From positions 160,001 to 224,000 of the forward strand of contig CAWCPV010000002.1 in the NCBI GenBank assembly GCA_963797555.1: 64,000 nucleotides of DNA, read 5' to 3'. Position numbers and translations under genes: made by a program. This DNA is from an uncultured Gammaproteobacteria bacterium. Its GTDB lineage: Bacteria; Pseudomonadota; Gammaproteobacteria; CAWCPV01. This document shows positions 11,916-37,691 of this stretch, one piece after another; position 1 is the first letter of the stretch; each line of letters begins with the position of its first letter. The notes under the pieces are model-generated. The model worked only from the letters and a program-made list of their open reading frames with translations, was not told where the DNA came from and searched no databases.

Positions 11916-12503
11916 TCAGGACCGCACGAATGCAAGCAGCGCTTCGAGGTTGTGCCGGTCGGCTTCGCGCAGGGCGGCGACGTAGCTCCGGCGGGCTTCG
12001 CCGGGATCGGCCAAGTTCGCGCTGCCCCAGGTGAAACGCGGGCGGCCCAGGGACACAAGGAGCAGGTCGGTGGCGAGCCGGGCATGACGGCCATTGCCGT
12101 TCGGGTAGGCGTGAATGGAAACGAGCCGGTGATGGAAGCGGACGGCGATCTCATCGGGCTCATAGGTGCCGTGGCCGATCCAGAACCGGCAGTCATCCAC
12201 GAGCTGGCGCAGGTCCTGCGGGATGCGCCAGGCATCGACGCCGACATTCTTGCCGGTACGGCGGTACTGACCGGCCCAGCGCCAGACCCTGCCGAACATC
12301 CGCTTGTGCAGACCGTTCAGAAAACGCTCGCCCGGCACATCGCGCCTGCGCTTGAAGGCCCACTCCTCGGCCTCCAGGATGTTCGCCTGTTCGGCCGCAT
12401 TGAGTTCGCCGCGCAGGGTGATGTAGGAGGGAATCAGACCCTCCCGCTCTTCTGCGCTGAGCGGTGTCGCCGCATCGTCCTGCTCTCCGAGCGGGTCCGT
12501 CAT
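11916..12503 (-). CDS. Mobile mystery protein B (Fic domain)
   Basis: ATPL..EREGLIP, ELNAAEQANI; Fic motif HAYPNGNGRHAR. Confidence 0.88.
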   Translation of the reverse strand: MTDPLGEQDDAATPLSAEEREGLIPSYITLRGELNAAEQANILEAEEWAFKRRRDVPGERFLNGLHKRMFGRVWRWAGQYRRTGKNVGVDAWRIPQDLRQLVDDCRFWIGHGTYEPDEIAVRFHHRLVSIHAYPNGNGRHARLATDLLLVSLGRPRFTWGSANLADPGEARRSYVAALREADRHNLEALLAFVRS

Positions 12504-22301: not shown

Positions 22302-25300
22302 TTACTCAGAACCCCGGGTTCTTGCGGTGATCATCATATACACCTTTTCTGCACGTATAGTTGCACCCATGTGCTCAAAGTAGTGTGCGGCTCGCTTCAT
22401 CCACCGCAACGCGTTCGCCACATGCCCTTCGCAGGCACGCATCTCGCCAATACGCCAGAATACCTCAGCACAATCGTAAGGACTCTCGATAGTCTGGTAA
22501 ATTGCGGCTCTTTCCGGAATCGTGTGGGTAGCAATGGCTATGGCGTGGGGGCATCTGCCTGATCTCCGACACCAGCGGGTGTGTTGAACGGCGAGGCGGG
22601 CAGGTGGGCCAGGTTGCCGGCGATGAGGTAGGCGATGGTGATGAGCGAGTGCGTGGTGCGGTAGCCCCGGGCGCGAGCCTTGGCGGCCTGGATGAGGGAG
22701 TTGATGCCCTCGGCGCGGCCGTTGGTGAGGCCCGAGTGGAACGCAGCGAGCACGCCGTCCCAATGCTCCTTGAGGGTGGTGGCGAGGCGCTTCATGGGCT
22801 GCAGGCGGCTACGCCGTGCCCAGCTATACCAGCGCCCGAGGGCGCTCTCGGCCTGCTCGAGGGTGCTGGCCGTGGCGTAGATATCGCGCAGCGCCTCCTT
22901 GAGGCGCCAGGCGCGGGCGGTCTTGAGGCGGGCGCGGGAGAGCCAGTGGAAGTCGGTGAGTTGGTCCCAGCCAGGTCCAGCGGGTGCCCCTGAGGGCGGG
23001 CTCGGTCTTGATCTCCTGGCGGCGCACCGCGTCGACCGCCTCGTTGGCGAGCTTGATCACATGGAAGGCATCGAAGCTCACCGTGGCCTGGGGCAGATGC
23101 TTGGCCACCCCGGCGCGGTAGGCGGCGGACATGTCGATGCACACCTGCTCGATGGCCTGCGGGTCGCCGCCGTGCGCCTTGAGGTCGGCGGCGAAGGCCG
23201 CCACGGTGCTCTGGTCGCGGCCCTCGCAGGCGAACAGCAGGCGTTTTCCCGTGAGGTCATGGAACAGGCTGATGTAGTGCTGTTCACGCCGGGCAGCGGT
23301 CTCGTCCAGGCCCACAGCGCTCACCTGCGAGTGGTCCTCCTGAGCACGGGCCCTGCCTACGTAGCGATCGAGCACCCCCCACAGGCGCTCATCGCCCACA
23401 CCCAGGTGCCGAGCCACGGTCGCCACCGGCATGGCCTGGCACAGCGTGACCACCAGCGCCTCCATCAGCGCCGTGAAGCCACTGTGGGCGCGCGCCCACG
23501 GCGCTTCGACCTGGGTCGTCTTGCCGCAGGCCTCGCAGCGCACCCGCGGCAGATGCGCGTGCAGGTACGCCCGTGACTTAAAGAAGCTCAGGTGCTGCCA
23601 ACTGCGCTCCCAGGTGTCGTGCACCGGCTGGCCTTGCACTCCGCAGGCCGGGCAGGCAAAGCGGCTGCCCTTGGCAAACGCCACCTCGAGGTCGATGCGC
23701 CCAGCCTCGGGGTCGAACCGCACGTCGGTGACCTCCCAAGGCGCTGTCAGGCCCAGTGCCGTGGTAAACAGATGCGTGGGCCGCACGGTGCTCCCCCCTT
23801 GGATGACGGCCTGTGGATTTGTGGACGAGTCCTGCGGAGCGGCCCGCGTCCCAAGGACCGTGTGGACAACCTCCCGGTTGCCCACACTCGCGGGCCTCTC
23901 GCCCACAACCCCACAAGCCCACAAGCCCAACCACAAGATGTTGTGATAAGCGACCAGTCAGGGCAAATGCTACTTCACCACCGCGACCCACACAATTTCC
24001 GAAAGAGCCTAAATTGCCCGCGCATCACGATATAGTTTGCGTGCCTCAGGGCAATTGCCTAACATCCGTCGGAGATCGCCCAATCCTCGAGTACAGTGAC
24101 CCTCTCCCATCCTGTCCCCAATATCGCGGCAATCCCTCAAAGCTCTACGGTATAGGGCTTCCGCGTCCGGAAATTGCTTGTGATGAAGATGCACCTCTGC
24201 GAGCCCCCAGATAGAGTGGGCTTCTCCCAACCTATCCCCGATTTCGGAGCAGATTCTCTGAGCTGATTCATAGTGCGCCTGTGCTTTATTAAGTTCCCCA
24301 TTATCAAGATGTACGTGGCCAAGACCCCTTATACAGGTTGCTTCTCCTAAACTATCTTGGTTCTCTACACACAATCTAAGGGCTTCCTGATATCGGTCTT
24401 TCGCGCCCTGGAGATCGCCTAGGTCGAGATAGACGTGGCCTAATCCCCAAATGCCGTGCGCCTCTCCTTCATCGTCATGAATTTTCCGACAAATGGTCAA
24501 AGCATCGTTATATTTCTCCTGTGCTTTATCGTATTGAGCCAGCATGCGGTAAACGTGCCCCAACCCCCTCAGACAGGTAGCCTGGCCAAGCTTGTCAGAA
24601 ATATCCGTGTAGATGATCAAAGCTTGACCATAAAACGCCCTGGATTCCCGGTACTTATCCAGCATCCGACGGGTGTTGGCCAGACCCCGGATGCAATTCG
24701 CTTGGCCCCGCTTATCATCAGCGTCGATGTAAATGTTGAGCGCTTTCTCATAGTTCGATTGCGCTTCTGGGTATTCGTCGAGTCTCCGATGCACATCAGC
24801 AAGACCGCACACGCAGGTTGCCTCATCCCGGACATCCGTCACGCCGTGGGCCGCGCCCGCGCCCTCCTGAAACCGTTGCTTAGCTTCGGAGCCCGACAGC
24901 GCGAAGGAGTAGAAAGGTACCAGAGAGGCGGTAAGGCGTGCGAAGCGGGATGCCTCGCCGCGTTCTTTTATCCGATCCATCGCTGCGTGGATATTCAGCA
25001 GTTCGACAGAGAAAAGCCGAATCGCCTCCCGTCGCGGCTGAGCCTCCTGAGCCGCAACCACCAGATCTTCGTAATGCGAGGCGTGGCGATCCTTGGCCTC
25101 GGCACGGTCGTTGGGGGTGCACCGACCGTCCCCATAGTCCCGTAACAAGTCGTGGAGGTGGTATCGGTTACTCGCCGAGTTCCACTCGACCAGACTGCGC
25201 GTCTGTAGGTCACTGAGCCGGTCCGCAGCGGAAAAGCGATCCATAGCCCAGACTGCAGCGGCGCTCGCCCGGTCAAAAGTATCCGGAAACACGGACAGGC

Positions 25301-26636
25301 TCCGCCAGATAAGCTGCAAGTCTGGGGTGAGCAGATCGTAGCTCAGGCTGAAGGATGCATTGACGAGTTCAACACGCTGGCTGCGTTCCGTGAGCCTTTG
25401 GTAATACTCTCCTGCGCTCAAATCGATGCGCACAGAGACGGCGCTTGCTGCAACGCGCAACGCCAGCGGCAGATAGCCGCAGAGCCGCGCTATAACTTCG
25501 AATGCCTTCTCTTCACGGCCACCGAGCACAGGAATCACAGTGTCCAGTCTAGGCGCAATACCAAGCAGCAGCCTATGGGCTTCCTTTGAGGGCAGCGGGT
25601 CGATATGCTTAGGATACAGCCCAGGAAGAGTGAAAGACTCGCGCGAAGTTGCGAGCAGGAGGCAACCCTTGGGTGGAATGAGGGCCTCAAGCTGTTCCGG
25701 TCCCGCAGCGTTATCGATGAGAATCAAGACCCGCTTGTCACGCAGCACGGACAGATACAGTCCTCTAAGCACCCCCTCGCTTTCGAGCACGCTAACTGTG
25801 GGGTGAAACGATCGGACCACGTGGGCTAGTGCGTCATGTGACGTTAGTGGCCTCCGGTCTGCGCCCTTGAGGTCTAAATAAATTTGGGCATCTGGATAGC
25901 CCGAACCGAGATCCTCCGCAAACTTCAGCACCAGCGCCGTCTTACCCACCCCAGCCATGCCCCATACCAGTAAGATGGTGAGATGGGGTTGTTCGACGAC
26001 CGACAGGAGTTCTTCGAGTTGCACAGTGCGTCCGGTGAAGTCGACCGGTGGCCGTGGGAGCTGGTGCAAGCTGCTCAGGCTGGGGGTGGCAATGTCCTGC
26101 AGCTTGGAGCGCAGCACGTCGACCGCCAGCCGGTCGGCGTTGGCGAAGCGGATCTCCGGGTAGCGCTCGACCTCTGCCAGGCGCGTCAGGTGAGCCTGCT
26201 GGACGGCGCGCTGTGCCTCGTCCAGCCGGTAGAGTTCGTCCCGCGGGGCGCCGTCTTGCGGCACGGCGATGATCAGCACCTTGGCGTGATACAGCGCCAG
26301 CCACGCCTCCCACTGGGTGTAGGAGAGGGGGGGTGCGTCGGGCGCCAGGAAGGGAGCCAGCACCGGCAGTTGCTTGGCGAGATTCGGATAGCGTTTCCGG
26401 AGCACCGCCACCGAGGGCGGCTGGGCCAACGCCCCGGTCATGTCGCCCACCAGGTGGATCACCGCATCACAGCGGCGGATGTATTCGTCGAGCTTGTCCA
26501 GCGTCTCGGTGCCGGTGGCGATGAAGTCCTCCTGCACCTTGACCGTGACGTTGGGGCGGTCTAGGTCACGGCGCAGGGCGTCGCGGTAGCTCGCGAACTC
26601 CGCACTCACGGTGGACAGGAAGATCTGAACTGGCAC
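22302..26636 (-). pseudogene. DUF4062 - NB-ARC (STAND) - TPR protein interrupted near its 3' end by ISL3
   Basis: QIFLSTVSAEF..DAVIHLVG; HQLPRPPVDFTGR, GMAGVGKTAL, LILIDNA, CGYLPLAL, RYHLHDLLRDY; about seven TPRs; IS removal restores DARAI-YQTIESP. Confidence 0.85.
22506..24009 (-). mobile_element. ISL3-family insertion sequence, transposase frameshifted
   Basis: IRs begin GGCTCTTTC at both ends; 8-bp TSD TAAATTGC at 22498-22505 and 24010-24017; CPACG, GLDET, CIDMS, FDAFHV and TNGRAEGINSLIQ split over two frames. Confidence 0.92.
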
Positions 26637-26814
26637 AGCCTGCTCCCTTACCTCTTTTGTCGTTCTGCAGCCCCTCACGTCGCCCCAAGACGCACTCGCA
26701 GCACCGCGGGCCGGCCCCACCATCCCGTACTCATCGCCCGTCGAGGACAACAGCATGTCGCAGTTGGCGCGTGGGCTCAATAGGCGCTGTGGCCTCTCTG
26801 TCGCGGGCTGTCGC

Positions 26815-26905: not shown

Positions 26906-27423
26906 AGATATCGCGGATGTGTCTGATATCAGTTCCGTTGCCGCCGCGCAAATCCGTGGCTCGAATGGCTGTTGTGGGTCGAACGCGGCCCCGAGACACG
27001 CGCTCGCCGACACGGGTTCGGAGGTGGTCATTGCGAACCTGAAGGTCATCAGGATTTCCCGCTTTTCAGGGGGTGGCGTGCCAGCGCAAAGGCCCAACAG
27101 GCGTGGGGTATCGCGATGATGCCCCCTACACCCCGGACGGGGATCAGGCGGCCACCCGTCCGGCCTGTCGCCGGTGGTGTAACGGGTCCGGCTCGGGTGA
27201 CATGCGGGCCGTCCACCACTTCGATGCTGCCGTCCGGCTGCGCGCCACGCGGCTTGACGCCCGAAACTTCCGACCACATGGATTCCCAGGTGGTCGGGGA
27301 CGACCAAAAGGCATCCGACATTTTTCCGACATCGGTGCTGCACGGTTGTGCGCAGTCGTGCATTTTGGGCAACGGACGCCGTCTTATGGCGTTGTTAAAA
27401 CAATGACTTGCGTTTCCCGGCGA

Positions 27424-27470
27424 GGCTACGAACCAGGGGGTCGGGAGTTCGAATCTCTCCGGGCGCGCCA
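27424..27470 (+). repeat. att direct repeat (duplicated 3' 47 bp of tRNA-Arg)
   Basis: GGCTACGAACCAGGGGGTCGGGAGTTCGAATCTCTCCGGGCGCGCCA, identical to 10363-10409. Confidence 0.95.
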
Positions 27471-27529
27471 TACAAATCAGCCGCTTAGGCCGCTTCCGCC
27501 GGTCTTGAGCAAGACGAGTGCGGGACTTT

Positions 27530-27850
27530 TGCGGTACGCCCCCCGCAAACCAGCTCAGCGGCCTCCCTCAGGTTGGACAGTTCGGCGCTGGAGTAGTGGG
27601 TGGTGATGCCCCCCAATCTGTGCCCGCTCAAATCCTGCCGGTCTTCGATGCCACCCCCGCTGCGCGAACTCGACGCACTAAAGGTGTGCTTGAGGTCGTG
27701 AACGCGGACGTGGGGCAATTCTGCCCTAGCCCGCGCCCGCTTCCAGGCGGTGTTGTTCATCTTCCCACCGGCCGGCCTTGTTGATACGTGAAGACATGCT
27801 CGGCATGCTTTCCCCTCACATCTTCCACGACCGACCGCGCCCCGAAATGC
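27530..27850 (-). pseudogene. Tyrosine integrase C-terminal remnant
   Basis: HVFTY..MNNTAWKRAR..RVHDLKHTF..EDRQDLSGH..ITTHYS over two frames, pointing at the att repeat. Confidence 0.8.
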
Positions 27851-28069
27851 ACTCGCCTGACGCAACAAGTGACCATGCCGCGCGTAGTCTTGGAAAAACC
27901 GCAGTCCCTTATGTGTCGGAAATAAGGATCGGGCAGCGTGATGTGGCTCCGATTCTCTGAACAGAGGAATCGATTTTGTAGATGGTGAACCGCGGGTGCA
28001 GAGTTATCCACGGGGCCGCCGCCCGCCCTTCTCAGGCGGGAGGCGAGCGGCCCGGTGGGTAACTCGCGT

Positions 28070-28899
28070 TCAGGCTGCGAGCTTTTCGTCTTGCTGCCCA
28101 TAATACACGGCGTCCGGTGTCTGGTCTCCTAGCCCTTGATGCCGGCGTCGTTGATTGTAGAAAGTGAAGTACCGGCCGAGTTGGCGCTTGGCGTCCAGGA
28201 TCGACTCGTACGCCTTCAGATACACTTCTTCGTACTTCACGCTGCGCCACAGCCTCTCGACAAAAACGTTATCTATCCAGCGCCCGCGTCCGTCCATACT
28301 GATGCGGATGTCATGAGCCAGGAGCGCGCTCGTGAAATCCTTGTCGGTGAACTGGCTGCCCTGGTCGGTATTGAAGATCTCGGGGCGTCCGTGGAGCATG
28401 AGCGCCTCTTCCAGCGCCTCCATACAGAAGGAGGTGTCCATGCAGTTGGAAAGCCGCCAGGCCAGCACCCGGCGCGAGCACCAATCGATGATCGCCACCA
28501 GATAGGCAAAGCCCTTGGCCAGGGGAATGTACGTGATGTCCGTAGCCCAGACCTGGTTGGGTCGGGTGACCACTACATCACGCTAGCCAAGTAGGGCCAT
28601 ACCTTGTGGCCGGGGTGCGCATCCGAGAGCCGCGGCTTGCGGTACAACGCCTCGATTCCCATCTTGTCCCTCAATGTCTGGACGTGGCGCCGGCCGACCT
28701 CGAAGCCCTCGTCGCGCAACGCCCCGCGCATGCGCCGGCTGCCATAGAACGGGTGCTTTAGGTGCAGCTCGTCGATTGCCCGCATCAGCGCCAGATCCCG
28801 CGCCGACACCGCCACCGCCCGGTAGTACTGGGATGAGCGCGAGAGCCCCAGGAGCTGGCACTGCCGCGTCAGCGGCAATTCGGCCACCTTGTCGATCAT
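28070..28899 (-). pseudogene. IS3 transposase OrfB, broken near 28575
   Basis: HPFYGSRRM; RPNQVWATDITY, FNTDQGSQFT and DNVFVERLWRSVKYE in two ORFs. Confidence 0.85.
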
Positions 28900-29192
28900 C
28901 GCTTTGTCGCATCGCCGATGCGACCGAGCGCGACGGACAAAAAATCGTTCTCCAGCGTCAGCTGCCCGATCTTCGCCTGCATGTCCTTCACCGACGGCCC
29001 CGATTCGGACTTGCGTTCCCGCTCGAACACCTCGTCAGCGCGGCTCTGCAACTGCTGCTTCCACGCCAGGATCTGACTCTGATGAACCTGAAACTGCGCC
29101 GATAACTCCGCCAAGGTCTTGTCGCCCTTGATCGCCGCCAGTGCCACCCTTGCCTTGAATCCCGCTCCATGATTGCGCCTCTTGCCACTCAT
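28896..29192 (-). CDS. IS3 transposase OrfA
   Basis: RRNHGAGFKARVALAAI..KIGQLTLENDFL. Confidence 0.88.
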   Translation of the reverse strand: MSGKRRNHGAGFKARVALAAIKGDKTLAELSAQFQVHQSQILAWKQQLQSRADEVFERERKSESGPSVKDMQAKIGQLTLENDFLSVALGRIGDATKR

Positions 29193-29676
29193 TTGCCGCT
29201 CCTCTCAATAGCATCGCCATGATAAAGCGGTTCATCCCCTACCACTTATCCCGCCGTACAGATTTCCGGAGCCAGCTCTGCGGGAACCTGACTTCGCTGG
29301 GCTCGTGACGCATTTCGGCCATCCTGACCTCGACCCGCTGCTTTCCGGCAAGGGCGGGTTTAGCGGGTGCATCAAGCGGTTCACGAGGAGCCCATGGGCA
29401 CATGTGGGCATGGTGCTTCGGCTCGGGGTGGAACATGGTCCTGCGCTGGGAGGCCCCGATGCTCAACAAGGTCGCTGATGTGCAGCGTAGAATTGAGGTC
29501 CGCGGGGTCCAGACTGGCGGGGCTCCGTGGGCGATGAAATATAGCGGCGACGAGATCGCGATTCGCCGCCTCTGCGTTGAGATGCGCGCAGCGCAGCAGA
29601 GATCCTCTCGGGCCGTTTCGCAGCCCATCCGGCCATCGCCAACTTGCCCCGTTCACACAACGGAGGGAGGACATCC

Positions 29677-31517
29677 ATGGCTGCGGAAGAGGACGCAATT
29701 GCGGACTTAGAGCACAAGCTACGCAGCCTCGAGTCGCTCCGCAGCGAGCTCGGGGACGCGCTCTTTAACCGCAAGCGAGCGGGGCTCGAAGCCCGGTTGC
29801 GGGACCTGCGGGAAGCGCGATCCGTTCAGACGCCTCGGAGATCCAGGCGGCGGGCGGCTCCGGGGCCCCACGTGGCAGGCGATGTCGACACCGGCGGCGG
29901 CCACTTCGTCGGCGGCAACCAGTACAAGTTCGAATACAGGGACCAGCCCCCGCGCGAGCTTCTTCTTGCCTATTACCGCTGCCTCGCCCAGGACTGCGCG
30001 CGCCTGCCGCTCGGCGTTGTAGACCCCCGTTTCGTGTCCGCAGGCAGCAAAAAAGAGGAGCTGTCGCTGGCGAGCATCTACACCGACCTCGACGTGGTGG
30101 CGTTGCCGCGGGAGCAGAACGAGGCGGCGGAGCGCTGGGGACTGCGCCTTGCCCGGGGCGAAGGTGGCGAGCGCACCCCGCTGCTCTCGGCGATCGCCGA
30201 CGACCGCTTCGCCCGGCTCGCCCTCATCGGCGACCCCGGCTCCGGCAAGACCACCTTCGTCAACTACCTGACCTTTCTGCTCGCCCGTGCGGCGGCGCCA
30301 GCGCTGCCGGGCGCGCTGAAGGGCTTGATCCCGGTGCGGCTCGTGCTGCGCAACGCCGTGCGTCACATCCCCGGGGAGGCCGAGAAGGGCAGCGGCGCGA
30401 TGCTCTGGGAGGCGCTCCGCGCCGACATCGAGGGGTATCTGGGGAGGGCGGCCACCGAACGGCTGTTCCCGCACCTGCAAGACCGCCTGCTGAAGCAGCC
30501 CGGTCTTTTCCTGCTGGACGGGCTGGACGAGGTGCCCGAGGCGGAGCACCGGCGGCGCTCGCTGCTGGAGGCCATCGCCGCGCTGGCCGGGAGCCTGCCG
30601 GTAGGCTCGCGCCTGCTGCTCACGGCGCGGCCCTACGCCTATGCCGATCCCAAGTGGCATCTCCCGGGATTCGAGCTGCTCGCGCTGTCCCCCTTCAGCG
30701 CCGAACAGGTGCGGCGGTTCGTGGGCCGCTGGTACGCGGCGGTACAGCCGGTGATGGGCTGGGATGCCGCCGCGGCGCAGGATCGGGCCCGGAAGCTCGA
30801 GCAGGTGCTGCTGGTCGAGCGGCCGGAGCTGGCGGACCTCGCGTCGCGCCCGCTGCTGCTCACGCTGATCGCCACCCTGCACACGAGCTGGGGACAGCTC
30901 CCGGACGACCGCGCCGACCTCTACGAGGAATCGGTCAAGCTCTTGCTGTCGCGCTGGCAGCGCGGCCGGGAGGTGCGGGGCGAGGACGGCAAGCCGGTGC
31001 AGGAGCCCGGCATCGCCCGGGCCCTGAGCTGGACGAGTCGGTCATCCGCGGCGCCCTGGAGCTGGGCTTGGCGCCATGGCGCCTGTCGCTGCCGAGTGAG
31101 GCCCAGTGGGAGAAAGCGGCCCGGGGGCCCGAGGGCCGGCGCTGGCCCTGGGGCGACGAGTGGGCCGAGGACCGTGCCAACACCCAGGAGGCCGGTCTTC
31201 AGGAGACGAGCGCGGTGGGCCTGTTTCCCAAGGGCAAGAGCGCATATGGCCTGCTGGATCTGGCGGGTAACGTCTGGGAGTGGACCACGAGCCGGTGGGG
31301 GCGCAGGTACTCTATGCCGGACTATCGCTACCCCTACGATGCGGCGGACGGGCGTGAAGACCTGAGCGGTTCTGATCCGTGCGTGGTGCGTGGCGGTTCC
31401 TGGGGCACCGCTCGGAGGGGCGCGCGCTGCGCCTGCCGCAACAGGGGTCCCGCGGACGACTTCGACAGCGACCTGAATTTTCGTGTCGTGGTGTCCCTGG
31501 CGGATTCTGGTTTCTGA
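29677..31517 (+). pseudogene. NACHT NTPase with C-terminal FGE-sulfatase (CLec-fold) domain; frameshift and internal deletion near 31030-31070; putative DGR target
   Basis: GDPGSGKTT, FLLDGLDEVP, TARPYAY, RPLLLTLIA; second frame LPSEAQWEKAARG, DLAGNVWEW, VVRGGSW..FRVV. Confidence 0.85.
31383..31496 (+). other. Putative DGR variable region (VR)
   Basis: Lies between RGGSW and FRVV; NNC/NNT codons at positions that are AAC/AAT in FGE-type template repeats; RT stub immediately downstream. Confidence 0.55.
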
Positions 31518-31557
31518 TTTCTGGATTCTGATGCGCTCGTCTTGAGGTAGTCCCGCC

Positions 31558-31707
31558 ATGGCTGTGCGCTTCGACCGGCTCTACCACGCCGTTACCACCT
31601 TCGACAACCTGTTCCGCGCTTACCGGAACGCAGCCCGAGGCAAGCGTGGTCAGCCGCAGGGCAGGTCCAGGGTGGCGAGCCATGACCTCTCGCGGCGAGC
31701 CTGGTAA
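31558..31707 (+). pseudogene. N-terminal stub of a DGR-type reverse transcriptase (not in ORF track)
   Basis: GAGGT RBS; MAVRFDRLYHAVTTFDNLFRAYRNAARGKRGQP fits the LxxxIxxFxNLxxAYxxAxxGKR start of DGR RTs. Confidence 0.65.
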
Positions 31708-31744
31708 GGTAAGGCATCGAGGCGTTGACGGAGGTTTCCGGACG

Positions 31745-31957
31745 ATGAAATATCGGGTTCTCATCGAGCAGGACGAGGACGGGATGTTCACAGCGCAGTG
31801 CCCTGCCCTGCCGGGATGTGTGACGCAGGGGCAGACACGGACCGAGGCCATCGAGAACATCCGGGAGGCGATCGCGGGCTACCTGGAGAGCCTGAAGAAA
31901 CACGGCGAGCCAGTGCCACCCTCGGTGGACGAGGAGATCGTCGAGGTCGCCGTTTGA
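31745..31957 (+). CDS. hicB: HicB family antitoxin (short)
   Basis: YRVLIEQDEDG..CPALPGCVTQGQTRTEAIENIREAI. Confidence 0.9.
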   Translation: MKYRVLIEQDEDGMFTAQCPALPGCVTQGQTRTEAIENIREAIAGYLESLKKHGEPVPPSVDEEIVEVAV

Positions 31958-32178
31958 CGCGGCTCCCGTCACTTTCCGGGCGTGAGCTGTGCAGGGTACT
32001 GGCGAAGTTCGGTTACGAGATCGACCACCAGACGGGCAGCCACCTGATTCTGCGTAACAGAATGCCGCCTCATCGCAGGCTGACCGTGCCGAACCACAAA
32101 GAGATCTCCAAGGGGACGCTGAGGGCGATCCTTCGGCAGGCAGGTTTGTCCGTGGAGGAGCTCCTGGAGGAACTGTGA
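31954..32178 (+). CDS. hicA: HicA family toxin
   Basis: TTG start; LPSLSGRELCRVL, QTGSHLIL, TVPNHKEISKGTLRAILRQAG. Confidence 0.9.
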   Translation: MTRLPSLSGRELCRVLAKFGYEIDHQTGSHLILRNRMPPHRRLTVPNHKEISKGTLRAILRQAGLSVEELLEEL

Positions 32179-32221
32179 GCGGGCCCCCCATACGAAGGGG
32201 CGGGGCGGAGGAAGGAGTGGA

Positions 32222-33415
32222 TTGACGCAGGAGCGGATGCCGGAATCGGTCGAGACTGGCGGCGGGGCGTACGTCGGCGAGGGCGTGAGCATGGGTGGTG
32301 GGACCTTCGTCGGCCGCGATCGAGATCGTCCTCATCGCCGGGTACAGCGCCGAGCAGTTGCAGACAGTGCTGCCGCGGTTGCGCGAGGCGCTGGCGGACC
32401 CGCAAGCGGGGCTGCGGGCGGACCCGAGCGGCGAGCGCATCACCGTCACAGCACCGCAGTCGCCGACCATCACATTGTCCCAGCAGGCGGCGGCTGACCT
32501 GCTGCCCGCCGCCGCACGCGAGGGGGACGAGCCAACCTATCTTGCGGCCCTCGCGGTGAGCCCCCGCTATGGCCGGTGGGCGACGCAGTTCGTGCCGCTG
32601 GCGGGCATGCTCGCGGAGCAGGAGCGTCCACCGGGCTGGGCCGAGATCCCGCCCGAGTTCACCGAGCTCGAGGTGATCGGTGAGGGAGCCCAGCGGCAAC
32701 TGCGCCGGGTGCGCCTCGAAGACATCACCGATGCGGTGCGGCGCCACCCGGCCCTGGCGCTCTTGGGCGAGCCGGGATCGGGCAAGACGACGACGCTGCA
32801 CCGGCTGCTGTTGGACGCCGCGCGGCAGCGGCTGACGGGGCAAGGCGGACCCCTGCCCGTGCTGTTGCCGCTGGCCGAGTACCGCGACTACCCCTCGCCG
32901 CACGCCTTTCTCCTGGCCCGCTGGGCACAGTCTCTGGGCGCGCTCGACCTGGCAGCGCACCTGCGTCGGGGCGATCTGCTCCTGCTCTGCGACGCGCTCA
33001 ACGAGATGCCGTTCCGTGACAGCCGGGACTACCGGGACCGCGTCGGCGCGTGGCGCCAGTTCGTCAAGGACTGGCCCGGCAACCGCCTGGTATTCACCTG
33101 CCGCAGCCGCGACTACAGTGAGCCGCTCGGGCTGCCGCAGGTCGAGATCGAGCGCCTCGACGACCCACGCATTGAGGATTTCCTCACCCGCTACCTCGCA
33201 CCGGCGCAAGCACAGGAGAGCTGGGCAAGGCTTCGGGGCTCGCCGCTCCTGGATCTGGTACGCAATCCTTACTACCTCACGATGCTCGCGTATCTGGTGG
33301 CTCGGGGTGGCGCATGGCCCGCGAGTCGGTCGGGCCTGTTCCAGGGGTTCACCGACACGCTGTTGAAGCGGGAAGAGACCCGCGGCCACTCCGACTGGCC
33401 GGGCAAGCAGCCGCC
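32222..33415 (+). pseudogene. Second NACHT protein; frameshift near 32320 and 3' truncation
   Basis: N-terminal TGGGAYVG..GGGTFVGRD; GEPGSGKTT, LLCDALNEMP, FTCRSRDY, RNPYYLTML; ends at a mobile mystery B fragment. Confidence 0.8.
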
Positions 33416-33501
33416 CTTCGCGCAGGGCCGCGAGATAGCGCCGGCGGGCTTCGCCGGCATCGGCCAGGTTCGCGCTGCCCCAGGTGAAACGTGGGCGGCC
33501 C
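33416..33501. repeat. 86-bp diverged copy of mobile mystery B segment 11963-12048
   Basis: Ungapped manual alignment, about 79/86 identical. Confidence 0.85.
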
Positions 33502-33623
33502 GACGGAGGTGTTCCCCGCTCGTTGGGCGGCGAACGGGTTGCAGACTTTACTGCAGGAGAGGGCGCATGCAGCTATGCGGTGGAACGCACCGCAAGGGGT
33601 TTCCGCCTACCCGAGCTGAACCT

Positions 33624-36155
33624 TCACGCCCGCGCCCGCGCCGCCAGCACGAGCCGGTGGGTCGCCTTGTAGACGCTTGCCGAGAGCCGGCGCGACATCT
33701 GCTCGAGTGGCAGCCGGAGTGCGCGCGCCAGGCGAGCAGAAATCCACAACAGCTTTTCGACCGTTTCTGCGAAGCGGCGATCAGCTTCCCCCCCGGCGAG
33801 GCTTAGCAGCTCACGCGCGGAGGCGGCCACCCCTTGGTAATCGCCTTGGTGCGCCTGTGCATCCAGTAAGGCAAACAGACTGCTCCAGCTCCGCTCCTTC
33901 GCATGGTGTTCACGGGCAAACTCAATCGCCTCGTTGAGCAGGCCCAGCCGACGCAGGCACGCGACGCGCAGCCTTTGCAGGTCTTCCGGCAGGGTATGTC
34001 CGGGGAAGACCCCCGCGTAATCATCCAACAGCTGTAGGCACTGGCGAGAGTCCGGTCCGTGCCAGGCCGCCCAGGCCGATAGATAGACCGTCGCAGCGGT
34101 AGCTGCCCGCGCCAGCAGTACATCCCGGTGCTGCCGGATGTACTCCCACTCGCCGGCCCGCGCCTTGAGCCGACATGCCTCAATGAGGTAGGAGAAAACG
34201 CCTGACTCACGGTAGGCGTGGTCCAGGAAATCGAACCAAGGGCGCCACTCGCCGCTGTCCTCGAAGCGTTGGTACGCACACACCGACAGCAACCTACGCC
34301 GATGTGCGGCATCAGTCTCGTTGCGCCCCTCTTCCTCGGCCACATCCACCTGTCCGGTCGCGAGGAGCGCGTGCACCCGCCAATGTCTCCAGCCGGGCTG
34401 TGCGTCGGCTTGGACGAAGCGCGCTCGGGCCTCGTCCAGGATCGCCAACGCCTCGTTAGCCTTGCCAGCCTCGATCAAGAGCGCACAGAGCAGCCCTGCC
34501 TGGTCAAGGTAACGCTTATTCTCGGGGGTCACTGCTCGTAACGCCTGTTCCGCCCGCTCCCGGTCGAACAAGACTTGCTTTGCAAGTCCCCACAACAGCG
34601 CCAAGGGGTGACCCCAATCCAAGTCGAGCAATTCCCGGAATGATTCTTTAGCCTGGTCACCCGCCTCCAGGGTGTGGACCACACACAGAAAACACCAGAA
34701 CCGACAGCGCCACCGGGCTTGTGGGTCACCCTCCAGCTCAGCGGCTAACTGCGCCAGCTCCTCGGCGGCTCGGCTCAGCCGCGCGCGGGCCTCGTCGTCT
34801 TGTCGCAGCAACTCCAGTTGGAACGGGTGCGGCACAAGCGGATTGTTGCCATCGAGAGCAGCCGGGGCGCAGGCTCCCCAGAAGTCGGCAATCGCTCTGA
34901 ACTCCCGCACGGTGTGCCAGTGTGGTTGCGCGGTGTAAGCCTCCTCCAACAGCGCCCGGGCCCCGGCGGCATCGCCTTGCAGCAGGGCAGCCATCCCTTG
35001 CAGCCGCAAAGTTTCGGCATCCGGCTCTATCCCCGGCGGCAGGGTCTGGAGCCGAGTCACGGCCTGCTCCAGACAGCCAAGTTCCAAGAGCAACGCGCAA
35101 TGGAAGTTGAAGGCCGGCAGAGTGCGCGTCTGCTCGGTCAGCCGCAGCGCCTCGTCCATGTGGCCAGCCCGGTAGGCGAAAACCCCGCGGGCGGCGCTGT
35201 CGTCACCTTTCGGGTCCAGTTCATGCGCTTCCTCCAGCAGGGCCTTACACTGCGCTTCTACTGTCTCTGCTTGCAGCTCGTAGATGGCCAGGGTGCGCAG
35301 AATCCTAGCGCGCACGATATGGTCTAGTGCATCCCACGTCGGATAGCTGCGCAGCGCGCGCAGTTCTTCCAGGGCCGTTGTGTGCCGACCAGAGCGGTAT
35401 CGTTCGCGGATGTCATCGAGATTCTCGGCGAGATGTTGCGAGAGAGCGTCGGCAAGCTTCAGGTTCTGGTCACCGAATGCTGCCAGCATTAAATCTCGCG
35501 TCCGTTGCTCGACGCGCAGGGGTGGCTGGAAACCGGGCTCCCCGGAAGCGATACTGAGTTCCCAGTCGGGGTTGGTCGGCTGAGGCGTGGACTCAGGAGC
35601 GGAGCCGCTCCGCTCATCGCCCGGCGGCGGCAAGGACCATCGCTCACGGACATAATTCGTGATATGGCGCCGCAGCAATTCCTCGAACTGAGGCCGGCCT
35701 TTGTACGACCACCACAGCCCTTCTTTGGGAAACTCTTCACGGAACCGGAGAACACGTCCCCACTGCTCGGTCTCTGCCGGAGATTGTGGGGAGTAAGGCT
35801 TCTGATTGAAGTACACCATGATCTGTGGCCGCCCGCTCCGCTGCCATGCCTCATAGCCGCGCTGAAGCTCGTGCTTGGTACCGGATTGGGCGTGTGCGGT
35901 CGGTGTACCAAAGCGCTTCCAGAAGATTCCGATGAGGAGATCGCATTCTTCGATGCGAAGGATGGGGTCGATGAGCCCCTGTGGGCCATCTGCGTGCAAA
36001 CCGGGATAAATGTCGGTCTCCCAGCGATAGAGCTGCAAGTGCAGGCCGCGGTCGGCGGCGACGCCGCGGTTGAGATCTTCAACCACCTTCGCGACGGCGT
36101 CTCGTTCCCGCTGGACGTCGCCGGGAGATGCGACGACCACCCGCAATGCCTTCAT
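33624..36155 (-). CDS. DUF4062-like N-terminal domain plus long helical/TPR-like region, probably 3'-truncated
   Basis: VVVASPGDVQRER, RWETD, CDLLIGIFWKRFGTPT, SGTKHE, PQIMVYF; Ala/Leu-rich helical repeats. Confidence 0.7.
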   Translation of the reverse strand: MKALRVVVASPGDVQRERDAVAKVVEDLNRGVAADRGLHLQLYRWETDIYPGLHADGPQGLIDPILRIEECDLLIGIFWKRFGTPTAHAQSGTKHELQRGYEAWQRSGRPQIMVYFNQKPYSPQSPAETEQWGRVLRFREEFPKEGLWWSYKGRPQFEELLRRHITNYVRERWSLPPPGDERSGSAPESTPQPTNPDWELSIASGEPGFQPPLRVEQRTRDLMLAAFGDQNLKLADALSQHLAENLDDIRERYRSGRHTTALEELRALRSYPTWDALDHIVRARILRTLAIYELQAETVEAQCKALLEEAHELDPKGDDSAARGVFAYRAGHMDEALRLTEQTRTLPAFNFHCALLLELGCLEQAVTRLQTLPPGIEPDAETLRLQGMAALLQGDAAGARALLEEAYTAQPHWHTVREFRAIADFWGACAPAALDGNNPLVPHPFQLELLRQDDEARARLSRAAEELAQLAAELEGDPQARWRCRFWCFLCVVHTLEAGDQAKESFRELLDLDWGHPLALLWGLAKQVLFDRERAEQALRAVTPENKRYLDQAGLLCALLIEAGKANEALAILDEARARFVQADAQPGWRHWRVHALLATGQVDVAEEEGRNETDAAHRRRLLSVCAYQRFEDSGEWRPWFDFLDHAYRESGVFSYLIEACRLKARAGEWEYIRQHRDVLLARAATAATVYLSAWAAWHGPDSRQCLQLLDDYAGVFPGHTLPEDLQRLRVACLRRLGLLNEAIEFAREHHAKERSWSSLFALLDAQAHQGDYQGVAASARELLSLAGGEADRRFAETVEKLLWISARLARALRLPLEQMSRRLSASVYKATHRLVLAARARA

Positions 36156-36308
36156 GCTCCGCCCGCCCTATCGTGTTCTTGCAACGCGCAGTCGTTGGGC
36201 GTCCGTTCCGCCAACCGCTGCGCACTCATGATACGGCAGGACAGACCACAGTGTTTCAGCCATGACCCGGACGACACAGGGCTTCCTGGTTCAGCCCATT
36301 TGCCCTCT

Positions 36309-36520
36309 CTACCCTTCCGTGAAGTGGTCCGAGTCCATCCTCTTGACTGCATAGGACGCGACTGGGCTCACGCCCACGCTGTGCTCCACCATAAGCTGGG
36401 CGAGGGCCTCTCCGTCGATGAGGATGGTCCGGGTGTCGATGCCCGGATGCGCGAGGCGCAGTTTTGGGCGTCCTTGGTGAAGGTCGAGGTCAATGATAAA
36501 GACCCCCTTCTTCGCTCGAT
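36309..36520 (-). pseudogene. mrr: Mrr restriction endonuclease C-terminal remnant
   Basis: Across frameshifts: RAKKGVFI / TSTFTKDA / IDTRTILIDGEALAQLMVEHSVGV..VKRMDSDHF. Confidence 0.72.
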
Positions 36521-36718
36521 TCCTAGGCGTCTCGTTGGGACAACGTCGCAGCCGCGTGGGTTACTCGTTCCCCCTTACCTTCGACCGCGAGAAGGATATC
36601 CAACTCCCTCTCCGTCACCCCGGCTTCCTGGGCCAGCTCGGTCCATTGGCGCGCGGCTTCCTCCCGCTGGCAAGCGCGGAAACGCCCGCGGCAGGGCAGG
36701 GTAACCAACAGGAGCTTC

Positions 36719-37234
36719 ATGGCAATGGCAACTAAGCGTTCCGATGAAGCGAGCCGCACGGACCAGCGGAGTGTGTCGGTGACCGGACAGGTGAGCGTGC
36801 GCGGAGGTGGGGAATCGAGTTCTCCGCGCACTCGTAGCGTGGTGGATACCGGTGGCGGCGCTTACATCGGTGGCAATGTTACAACCGGCGGCGGGGACTT
36901 CATCGGCCGTGACCAGATCAAGACCGTCACGTCCAACCTGATGGGCCGCCAGCAGGGGATCACCGTCGAGGAGTTTCTGCGGCTGCTCGAGGAGGTGCGC
37001 GCGCTCTTGGCGCGCTCCGAAATCGAGCAGGACACCGTCGAGGTGGTCGAGGGCGACATCAAAGTCGTGGAGCAGCAGGCTGCGAAGGAAAAGCCCAATG
37101 GCACCATCATCAAGAGCAAGCTGAAGAGCGCGGAAGAGATGGTTGAGAGCGCCGGAAAAGCCACCGAGGGCATCGAGAAGCTCGTCTCGGTGCTGGTCAG
37201 GCTGGTGCAGATGGCAACCGCGCTGTTCGCGTAA
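36719..37234 (+). CDS. Small protein: Gly-rich amyloid-like N-terminal motif plus helical C-terminal domain
   Basis: AGGAG RBS; VDTGGGAYIGGNVTTGGGDFIGRDQ; amphipathic helices ending LVSVLVRLVQMATALFA. Confidence 0.75.
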   Translation: MAMATKRSDEASRTDQRSVSVTGQVSVRGGGESSSPRTRSVVDTGGGAYIGGNVTTGGGDFIGRDQIKTVTSNLMGRQQGITVEEFLRLLEEVRALLARSEIEQDTVEVVEGDIKVVEQQAAKEKPNGTIIKSKLKSAEEMVESAGKATEGIEKLVSVLVRLVQMATALFA

Positions 37235-37691
37235 TCGCTGGCATTACCGAAAGTCCCCAAAGGGTTTTCGGCACCTCGGCGCATGTCGAGACGCATACGC
37301 CTGCGGCTCGATAGCAGTAACGCAGACGCGCGGGAGGCCTGCAGGATCGAGTCGGGCGGGGCGCGTGGGCCTCTCGGAGGCAGGCCGGGTCGCTTGGAGG
37401 CGACCTGCATCGTGGCGCGGAAAGTGGGCGCGCCCCAAGGAGGGAAACCCATCGCACGGCGTCTACTGACCAGCCGCGAGGCCGGCGCCTTCGAAGCGGC
37501 AGCCGAGAGCATCGTCCCGGATCATGCCGCTCACGCGTGTTCCGTCATGACCCCGCAGTACGTCTAGCTTCCGCTGCGCCTGCACTCGCTGCGCGCGGTG
37601 GCCTGCGCGGGATTGCCCACCGGCGGTTTCGGGAATACCATTGAGCCCTACTCATCCCCCCGAGGGCCCAGCGCCAGGCTCACCATCCTCG

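Follow-up and report, generated by a model that had tools for sequence, protein, structure and literature searches.

The question raised by this locus is whether a receptor gene with a hypervariable end, followed by what looks like the start of a reverse transcriptase (RT), encodes a sensor that is still being diversified or is the wreck of one. The locus lies in the window, by which we mean the whole 64,000-nucleotide stretch analyzed here (C2:160001–224000, that is, contig 2 of a gammaproteobacterial assembly of 5.35 Mb in 20 contigs that is 84.6% complete; other contigs are numbered likewise). An earlier reading made from the letters alone (hereafter the sequence-only reading) had proposed a relic of a diversity-generating retroelement (DGR) that diversifies the sensor domain of an NLR-like NACHT protein, that is, a diversifying immune receptor. 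Our analysis indicates that the locus is very probably the decayed remnant of a two-target DGR cassette. The relic in that proposal is thus supported by a variable repeat (VR) at the end of an FGE/C-type lectin (CLec) domain, by an RT stub, and by a paralogous DGR whose template repeat (TR) aligns with the VR, but the working diversifying receptor is not, the target gene being internally deleted and frame-shifted.

The ancestral cassette would have comprised, in this order, target 1 (N-terminal adaptor region, NACHT, and FGE/CLec with VR1), RT, Avd, TR, and target 2 (NACHT and FGE/CLec with VR2). By analogy with the family, the RT would have copied the TR RNA with errors at adenines, and the resulting cDNA would have taken the place of the VR in the CLec tip, re-drawing the ligand-binding surface of an NLR-like sensor. 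What survives in the window is (i) the NACHT half of target 1; (ii) the C-terminal third to half of its FGE domain, read in a different frame; (iii) the VR with an end resembling an initiation of mutagenic homing (IMH) site and an adjoining array of CTG heptads; (iv) the first 32–44 RT codons; and (v) the NACHT core of target 2. The RT core, Avd, the TR, and the start and FGE/VR of target 2 are gone, and at or beside the breakpoints there are now a hicBA pair, a Fic fragment, and an IS3-like element. Because the RT core, Avd, and TR are gone, the window VR is a fossil record of past adenine mutagenesis, and no receptor is being diversified now. The locus is filed as a relic since three of four features of a working DGR fail: it has no intact DGR-type RT domain, no TR that differs from the window VR only at TR adenines, and no accessory gene avd. 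The fourth feature, a VR at the 3′ end of a CLec/FGE target with an IMH unlike the IMH* of the TR, is present (CTGGCGGA in the VR versus ATAGCCGT in the TR).

Target gene 1 lies on the forward strand. Its 5′ part (29674..31026, 451 open codons) encodes an N-terminal coiled-coil/DTGGG region and a NACHT NTPase (Pfam NACHT, E 7.9e-13), and its 3′ part (31077..31517, ending with the TGA at 31515–31517) encodes the C-terminal part of an FGE-sulfatase/CLec domain (Pfam FGE-sulfatase, E 3.8e-26). Alignment with homologues revealed a break between the two parts (31027..31076), where a frame change coincides with a deletion junction at which about 1.1 kb (about 390 aa) was lost; the NACHT part is read in the frame of 29644 and the FGE part in the frame of 30654, and the switch falls within 31027–31076. 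In alignment with the intact target of locus L043 from another genome, the NACHT part (29863–31026) corresponds to residues 211–607 with 53.5% identity, and the FGE part (31077–31502), in the other frame, corresponds to residues 998–1134, leaving about 390 residues missing. The deletion took out what followed NACHT together with the first, N-terminal half of FGE. The NACHT-to-FGE gap is 51 nt in the window versus a median of 1165 nt (range 586–1345) across 92 homologous loci with both parts, only one of which has a gap below 900 nt. Because the frames differ and only the C-terminal FGE part is present, the gene is no intact NACHT-FGE fusion. Of the features of STAND-CLec sensor loci, the central STAND/NACHT NTPase is found in target 1, as well as in target 2 (Pfam NACHT, E 1.6e-10), and a complete in-frame C-terminal CLec/FGE domain is not found with it. 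The features recorded by the sequence-only reading are all there, namely the letters that follow RGGSW, the codons of NNC/NNT type, the TTCTG repeats spanning the stop, and a 49-aa open reading frame (ORF) 40 nt after the stop. Its view of the FGE/CLec domain as the C-terminus of the NACHT protein is right as to the fold but not as to the connection, since the domain is in a separate frame and only its C-terminal part remains.

A close reference for the locus is a paralogous DGR on the minus strand of contig C3 (C3:52400–44585; loci L002, L003, L004, L022, and L024), which reads target 1 with VR, RT, bAvd, TR, and target 2 with VR. The DGR-type RT and the bAvd gene (Pfam E 2.1e-18) sit between both targets, and the AAC-rich TR (C3:47783–47664, minus strand) can be aligned to the window VR. 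In the part upstream of the IMH, the two C3 VRs (C3:44741–44585 and C3:49603–49447) differ from this TR at 14 and 12 adenines, respectively, and at 0 other bases; one of the VRs has a 1-nt insertion. The C3 DGR shares with the window the order of target 1 with VR, RT, (Avd, TR), and target 2, an identical IMH-like end, and a heptad array of the same kind; its VRs and TR are 77–80% identical to the window VR, and its target 2 NTPase is 69% identical at the nucleotide level. Unlike the window, it still has an RT, Avd, a TR, and two VRs whose only differences from the TR are at adenines. Target 1 of C3 is a distant paralogue, with 37% identity to the target 1 of L043 versus 53.5% for the window target 1. 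The C3 RT spans three frames and each C3 target two, so that the frame changes six times or more within about 8 kb; this is either very recent decay or local consensus error.

Adenine-specific TR/VR pairs exist at five RT loci of the genome and at none of the 13 other RT loci tested. The bAvd gene is present at all five DGR loci, and three further matches below the cut-off lie on C3 and C6. Besides the C3 DGR, these are four DGRs in which the RT frame is open and bAvd and TR/VR pairs with adenine-specific differences are present (C14:227.7–229.2k, C14:5.8–9.6k, C4:374.9–377.4k, and C6:61.1–62.9k). The VRs in the genome total 8, C3 included. With five such loci and the wreck in the window, the genome invests heavily in DGRs.

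The window VR (31377..31496, forward strand) contains the formerly diversified codons at 31404–31478 and, in a search of the genome, matched the three C3 repeats at 80%, 78%, and 77% identity. The RGGSW codons (31389–31403) are followed by GGC ACC GCT CGG AGG GGC ... TGC, and further on by AAC AGG GGT ... GAC GAC TTC GAC AGC GAC; at the positions where the TR has AAC, AAT, or TAC codons, the VR reads GGC ACC GCT GGC TGC AAC GGT GAC GAC AGC GAC. The IMH-like end of the VR (31488..31504, forward strand; GTGGTGTCC CTGGCGGA) is common to both C3 VRs, where the TR instead has ...TCC ATAGCCGT. Over the end of the repeat, GTGGTGTCCCTGGCGGATTCTG is identical in the window VR and both C3 VRs, and the TR has ...TCCATAGCCG....

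Comparison of the window VR with the C3 TR revealed mismatches at 17 of 27 adenines versus 15 of 103 other bases (Fisher p 1.5e-6). When 11 TRs were compared, the C3 TR was the closest, with 15 of 25 adenines and 13 of 95 non-adenine positions differing; against the ten other TRs, from related loci, 58–68% of adenine sites versus 15–29% of other sites differ. The non-adenine differences from the C3 TR are mostly at third-codon positions, and several are no farther than about 25 nt from the IMH. Because non-adenine positions differ at all, and several of them right beside the IMH, the C3 TR is a paralogue and not the template of the window VR, into which it has not homed. The sequence-only reading had suggested looking genome-wide for a copy differing only at adenines; an adenine-specific TR does exist in the genome, but the window VR departs from it at the non-adenine positions as well. 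No TR-like copy was found in the window or elsewhere on contig C2. A match at C20:87520 (79% over 48 nt) was considered as a TR and rejected, being an FGE-type C-terminus without AAC codons.

The 49-aa ORF (31558..31707, forward strand) is the N-terminal remnant of a DGR RT, with clear homology over residues 1–32 (31558–31653) and possible homology to about residue 44. Its ATG at 31558 lies 40 nt past the target 1 stop. Its best tblastn match genome-wide is the N-terminus of the C3 DGR RT (E 8.9e-6). Seven non-self matches were found in the whole genome at E ≤ 0.1, five of which are the N-termini of the RTs with adenine-specific TR/VR pairs; the four besides C3 lie directly upstream of RVT_1 matches (C14:228k, C14:8k, C4:376k, and C6:62k). 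At the same threshold, no stub match was found at the 13 other RT loci of the genome, and the N-termini of these other RTs carry ...GAPGVDG... versus ...AARGKRG... in the stub. The 374-aa RT of L043, whose N-terminus begins MPKRFNHLYDEVTSFENLYVAYRKAARGKRGQAPVATFEF... and resembles the stub, matches the window only over residues 1–32 (65.6% identity, E 7e-8). The stub has no match in Pfam or NCBIfam. The identification of the stub as a DGR RT by the sequence-only reading is borne out by these N-termini, which match at the syntenic position both in this genome and at related loci. That reading would have been given up for a stub of another RT class in a genome lacking an adenine-specific TR; the stub is unlike the other RTs of the genome, and such a TR is present.

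Only residues 1–32 (perhaps to about 44) of an RT of about 360–374 aa remain. RVT_1 and bAvd (PF22296) have no match anywhere on contig C2, and tblastn with the C3 Avd found no Avd in the 64-kb window. The sequence-only reading had seen no template repeat, avd, or RT core in the window; this holds, and it holds for contig C2 likewise. In the place of the RT core, Avd, and TR there is a hicB-like antitoxin gene (31746..31957, forward strand; Pfam HicB_lk_antitox, E 8.9e-11) followed by a hicA-like toxin gene (31954..32178, forward strand; Pfam HicA_toxin, E 2.6e-20), the start of which is placed at a TTG overlapping the hicB stop. The adjacent HicB-like and HicA domains make this a predicted HicAB toxin–antitoxin pair, and the hicBA stretch is unique in the genome. 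Small collinear tblastx pieces between 31800–32300 and the RT/Avd region of C3 were judged compositional noise, because Pfam assigns this stretch to hicB and hicA.

Downstream of the hicBA pair lies the remnant of target gene 2 (32295..33412, forward strand), a NACHT NTPase paralogous to C3 target 2, with 69% nucleotide identity to C3:47200–46287 over 944 nt. It lacks the N-terminus and everything beyond the NTPase module (FGE and VR), and its translation is junk past about residue 372. Remnants of the two targets that flank RT-Avd-TR in such a cassette are both present, in the right order and orientation, the second without FGE/VR. At the truncation point of target 2 there is a 3′-end fragment of a Fic-family gene (33416..33501, minus strand), which is 92% identical to window 11963–12048. 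A Fic-domain gene lies at window 11919–12503 on the minus strand, and the 86-nt copy at 33416–33501 matches its 3′ end. An IS3-like insertion sequence (28073..29283, minus strand; ORFs matching Pfam HTH_Tnp_1, HTH_21, and rve) lies about 390 nt upstream of the NACHT gene, and its end (29205–29283) is multi-copy, with six more copies of a 75–80-nt end in the genome. Rfam had no match in 27000–37500 at E ≤ 0.1, and a promoter/terminator scan of 31300–32400 revealed nothing exceeding shuffles.

Related loci in other genomes give the intact form of the cassette. The NACHT part finds 48 loci in genome contigs, mostly from metagenome-assembled genomes (MAGs) of Anaerolineae (28–62% identity), and 79 metagenome loci (best 63% identity). 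Among the 79 metagenome loci there was no allele from the same species that had kept its cassette intact, and none of 40 same-class genomes gave a DNA match; the collection searched holds no close kin. Of the 48 genome loci, 34 had enough sequence for analysis; in these, a stub-like RT N-terminus follows the NACHT-FGE stop by 60–250 nt in 13, and adenine-specific TR/VR pairs are present in 10. The intact RTs of related loci have 357–374 aa and a stub-like start. Intact cassettes (e.g., L043, L050, L048, and L067, from Anaerolineae and other MAGs) resemble the window in a NACHT part with 46–62% identity, in the same RT N-terminal pattern, and in an RT that begins 60–250 nt past the target stop; the TR follows 1.5–1.7 kb further on, and then the second target. 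Unlike the window, they have a full-length RT, Avd, a TR, and a full FGE domain; the L043 target has DUF4062 at the N-terminus and, besides NACHT, an FGE domain that is complete (Pfam positions 3–254).

Decay of the RT is not confined to the window. Among 62 loci with at least 1.5 kb past the FGE end, a near-full RT is present there in 13, an N-terminal remnant only in 4, and none in 45; since a few contigs figure in both collections and thus as more than one locus, the numbers are not independent. The four remnants, of 38–115 aa after the NACHT-FGE stop, belong to L026 (L026:11058–11680), L029 (L029:11159–11284), L030 (L030:2828–3583), and L132 (L132/L063). L026 retains Avd, TR, and two adenine-specific VRs behind its 47-aa RT remnant.

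The VR end in the window runs into a CTG-heptad array (31505..31532, forward strand), four copies of TTCTGRW with a TTCTG period of 7 that include the stop codon. A period-7 TTCTG array is unique in the window and occurred in 0 of 100 shuffles. At related loci, at least 3 CTG words are found in the 65 nt after all 15 VRs examined, versus at most 2 at all 9 TRs; likewise, at least 4 CTG words in 80 nt are found at 76 of 99 distinct FGE 3′ ends of the family versus 20 of 495 random 80-mers. All three frames are closed within 50 nt at 32 of the 99 family 3′ ends versus 9 of 495 controls; a three-frame stop as the sole function of the array was rejected, as it is enriched yet explains only a third of the ends. 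A strict genome-wide search for the TTCTG array with 7-nt spacing returned the window copy only, and it exposed no further orphan VRs because the C3 arrays have mixed 7/8-nt spacing. The tandem repeats after the VRs of the four other DGRs of the genome are short and have other unit sequences.

How cellular DGRs recognize remote targets has, to our knowledge, yet to be explained. We tentatively suggest, as an idea with the odds against it, that the IMH-like end and the CTG-heptad array (TTCTGRW repeats, often followed by a G-run) could form the VR-side homing address of this DGR clade. The array may then be the direct-repeat counterpart, by analogy, of the inverted repeat after the IMH of a Bordetella phage. 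If this is true, the array marks every addressable target, orphan and remote ones included, and the wreck in the window stays visible to a matching TR and RT acting in trans. The main-text passages that we searched of the DGR literature (Wu et al. 2018, PMC5758913; Doré et al. 2024, PMC10907252; Vallota-Eastman 2020) contain no description of such an array. The VR-specific CTG-heptad array is thus a mildly new item, a conserved feature brought out by comparison with about 100 relatives, and a candidate target-recognition signal.

Several points weigh against a decayed cassette. The adenine bias of the window VR alone is no proof and is partly circular, because TR adenines occupy codons that are variable in any homologue. 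The limit of stub homology is blurred, falling at residue 32 or at about 44. All 451 codons of the NACHT part remain open, so either the decay is recent or this part is still in use. The assembly, in which the models for rpoB and rpoC find nothing, may lack a stretch that holds a cognate TR, and the locus is known from assembled sequence alone, where a chimeric assembly or one of collapsed paralogues is possible. This last point leads to a reading in which the deletion and truncations are artefacts, the assembler having jumped between paralogous NACHT-FGE/DGR loci while the real locus is intact. An incomplete 20-contig assembly with several paralogous DGR loci would lend itself to such errors, and the frame changes of the C3 locus, which shows a pristine TR/VR pattern despite them, could be local consensus errors. 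However, secA, uvrA, and gyrA (3 of 3 long housekeeping genes found) are each in a single open frame, and the other RTs, of DGR and intron type, likewise have open frames, so indels are not widespread in the assembly. (The uvrA-like open frame has 1928 aa and matches the model twice.) Moreover, the junction partners, hicBA and the Fic fragment, are no DGR paralogues, the hicBA stretch occurs only here, and similar RT remnants are found in the unrelated assemblies of L026, L029, L030, and L132. We consider an assembly artefact very unlikely.

A live remote target, on which the C3 DGR or a TR and RT in the unassembled part of the genome would act in trans, has hardly any probability in our estimate, although its IMH-like end and heptad array are intact and the same as in the C3 VRs over GTGGTGTCCCTGGCGGATTCTG, the genome is incomplete and holds four other DGRs with open RT frames, and parts of Doré et al. 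2024 (PMC10907252) report trans diversification of incomplete loci in Thiohalocapsa PB-PSB1. The closest TR differs from the VR at 13 of 95 non-adenine positions, and, no more than about 25 nt from the IMH, the changes GGG>AAT, CGG>CGT, and GTG>GTC would have been overwritten by homing from the C3 TR. The assembly contains no other TR-like copy, the C3 RT itself spans three frames, and the host gene is frame-shifted and has lost half of the FGE fold, so that diversification would serve no protein. That there was no retroelement history at all, the locus being an ordinary FGE C-terminus with chance NNC codons beside a chance 49-aa ORF of a GC-rich genome, could appeal to the many spurious ORFs in high-GC DNA and to the missing Pfam or NCBIfam match of the stub; it is practically ruled out by the tblastn match of the stub to an RT that follows a verified VR, by its identity with the first 32 residues of the intact L043 RT at the same position, and by a VR end and heptad array common to verified VRs.

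The decayed cassette stands in a defense/conflict island. Two NLR-like genes on the minus strand flank the locus: one of 923 aa (24012–26780) with DUF4062, NB-ARC/AAA, and TPR, and an 843-aa ORF (33627–36155) with a DUF4062 match of 21.1 bits, which is below the Pfam cut-off of 24.7. A glycine-rich DTGGG motif is common to the N-terminus of the NACHT protein of target 1 at 29887 (DTGGGHFVGGNQYKF) and to a small ORF at 36845, and it is found in the C3 targets too. The small ORF (36527–37231; DTGGGAYIGGNVTTGGGDFIGRDQI...EEFLRLLEE) has no Pfam match at E ≤ 0.001, and the target 1 ORF N-terminal to its NACHT/P-loop (before about residue 168) has none at E ≤ 1. A similar DTGGG pairing occurs upstream of the C3 locus, beside an ORF that is caspase-like by eye. 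This shared motif, the only trace seen of the proposed link to an amyloid relay, is probably what the sequence-only reading meant by that relay, or an adaptor motif.

Taken alone, the locus matters little, being one more degenerate locus in a described class, but it illustrates how a cassette dies: by an internal deletion of the sensor and by loss of the RT core, Avd, and TR, with a toxin–antitoxin pair and mobile debris in their stead. Parts of Kaur et al. 2020 (PMC7159879) connect the conflict systems of multicellular prokaryotes with FGS domains that DGRs diversify. According to parts of Doré et al. 2024 (PMC10907252), DGRs of multicellular bacteria diversify two STAND/NACHT-CLec targets per locus, with several loci per genome; some loci are "degenerate", with missing or pseudogenized parts, RT or TR loss driven by transposons or MITEs (miniature inverted-repeat transposable elements), and diversification in trans, examples being DGR 3 and DGR 6 of Thiohalocapsa PB-PSB1 (RT clade 5D). 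Diversified STAND-CLec sensors and degenerate loci are thus already described, and the window is a further, dead example. Compared with what is described there, the window and its genome share (i) two targets (remnants in the window), each pairing a NACHT/STAND NTPase in the center with a VR-bearing FGE/CLec domain at the C-terminus; (ii) several DGR loci per genome; (iii) RT/TR loss or pseudogenized parts; and (iv) mobile elements at the breakpoints. The window differs in that a hicBA pair, and not MITE-like arrays, stands where the core was lost, that the target gene itself is broken, and that the assembled sequence gives no sign of trans diversification. The prototype DGR of Bordetella phage BPP-1, as described in parts of Wu et al. 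2018 (PMC5758913), has likewise a VR at the 3′ end of a CLec-fold gene and an IMH in the VR versus an IMH* in the TR, and adenine-specific mutagenesis by RT and Avd is the family likeness. By contrast, BPP-1 has a GC-rich inverted repeat after the IMH where the window and its family have the direct CTG-heptad array, and its target is a phage tail fiber, whereas the target in the window is a cellular NLR-like NTPase.

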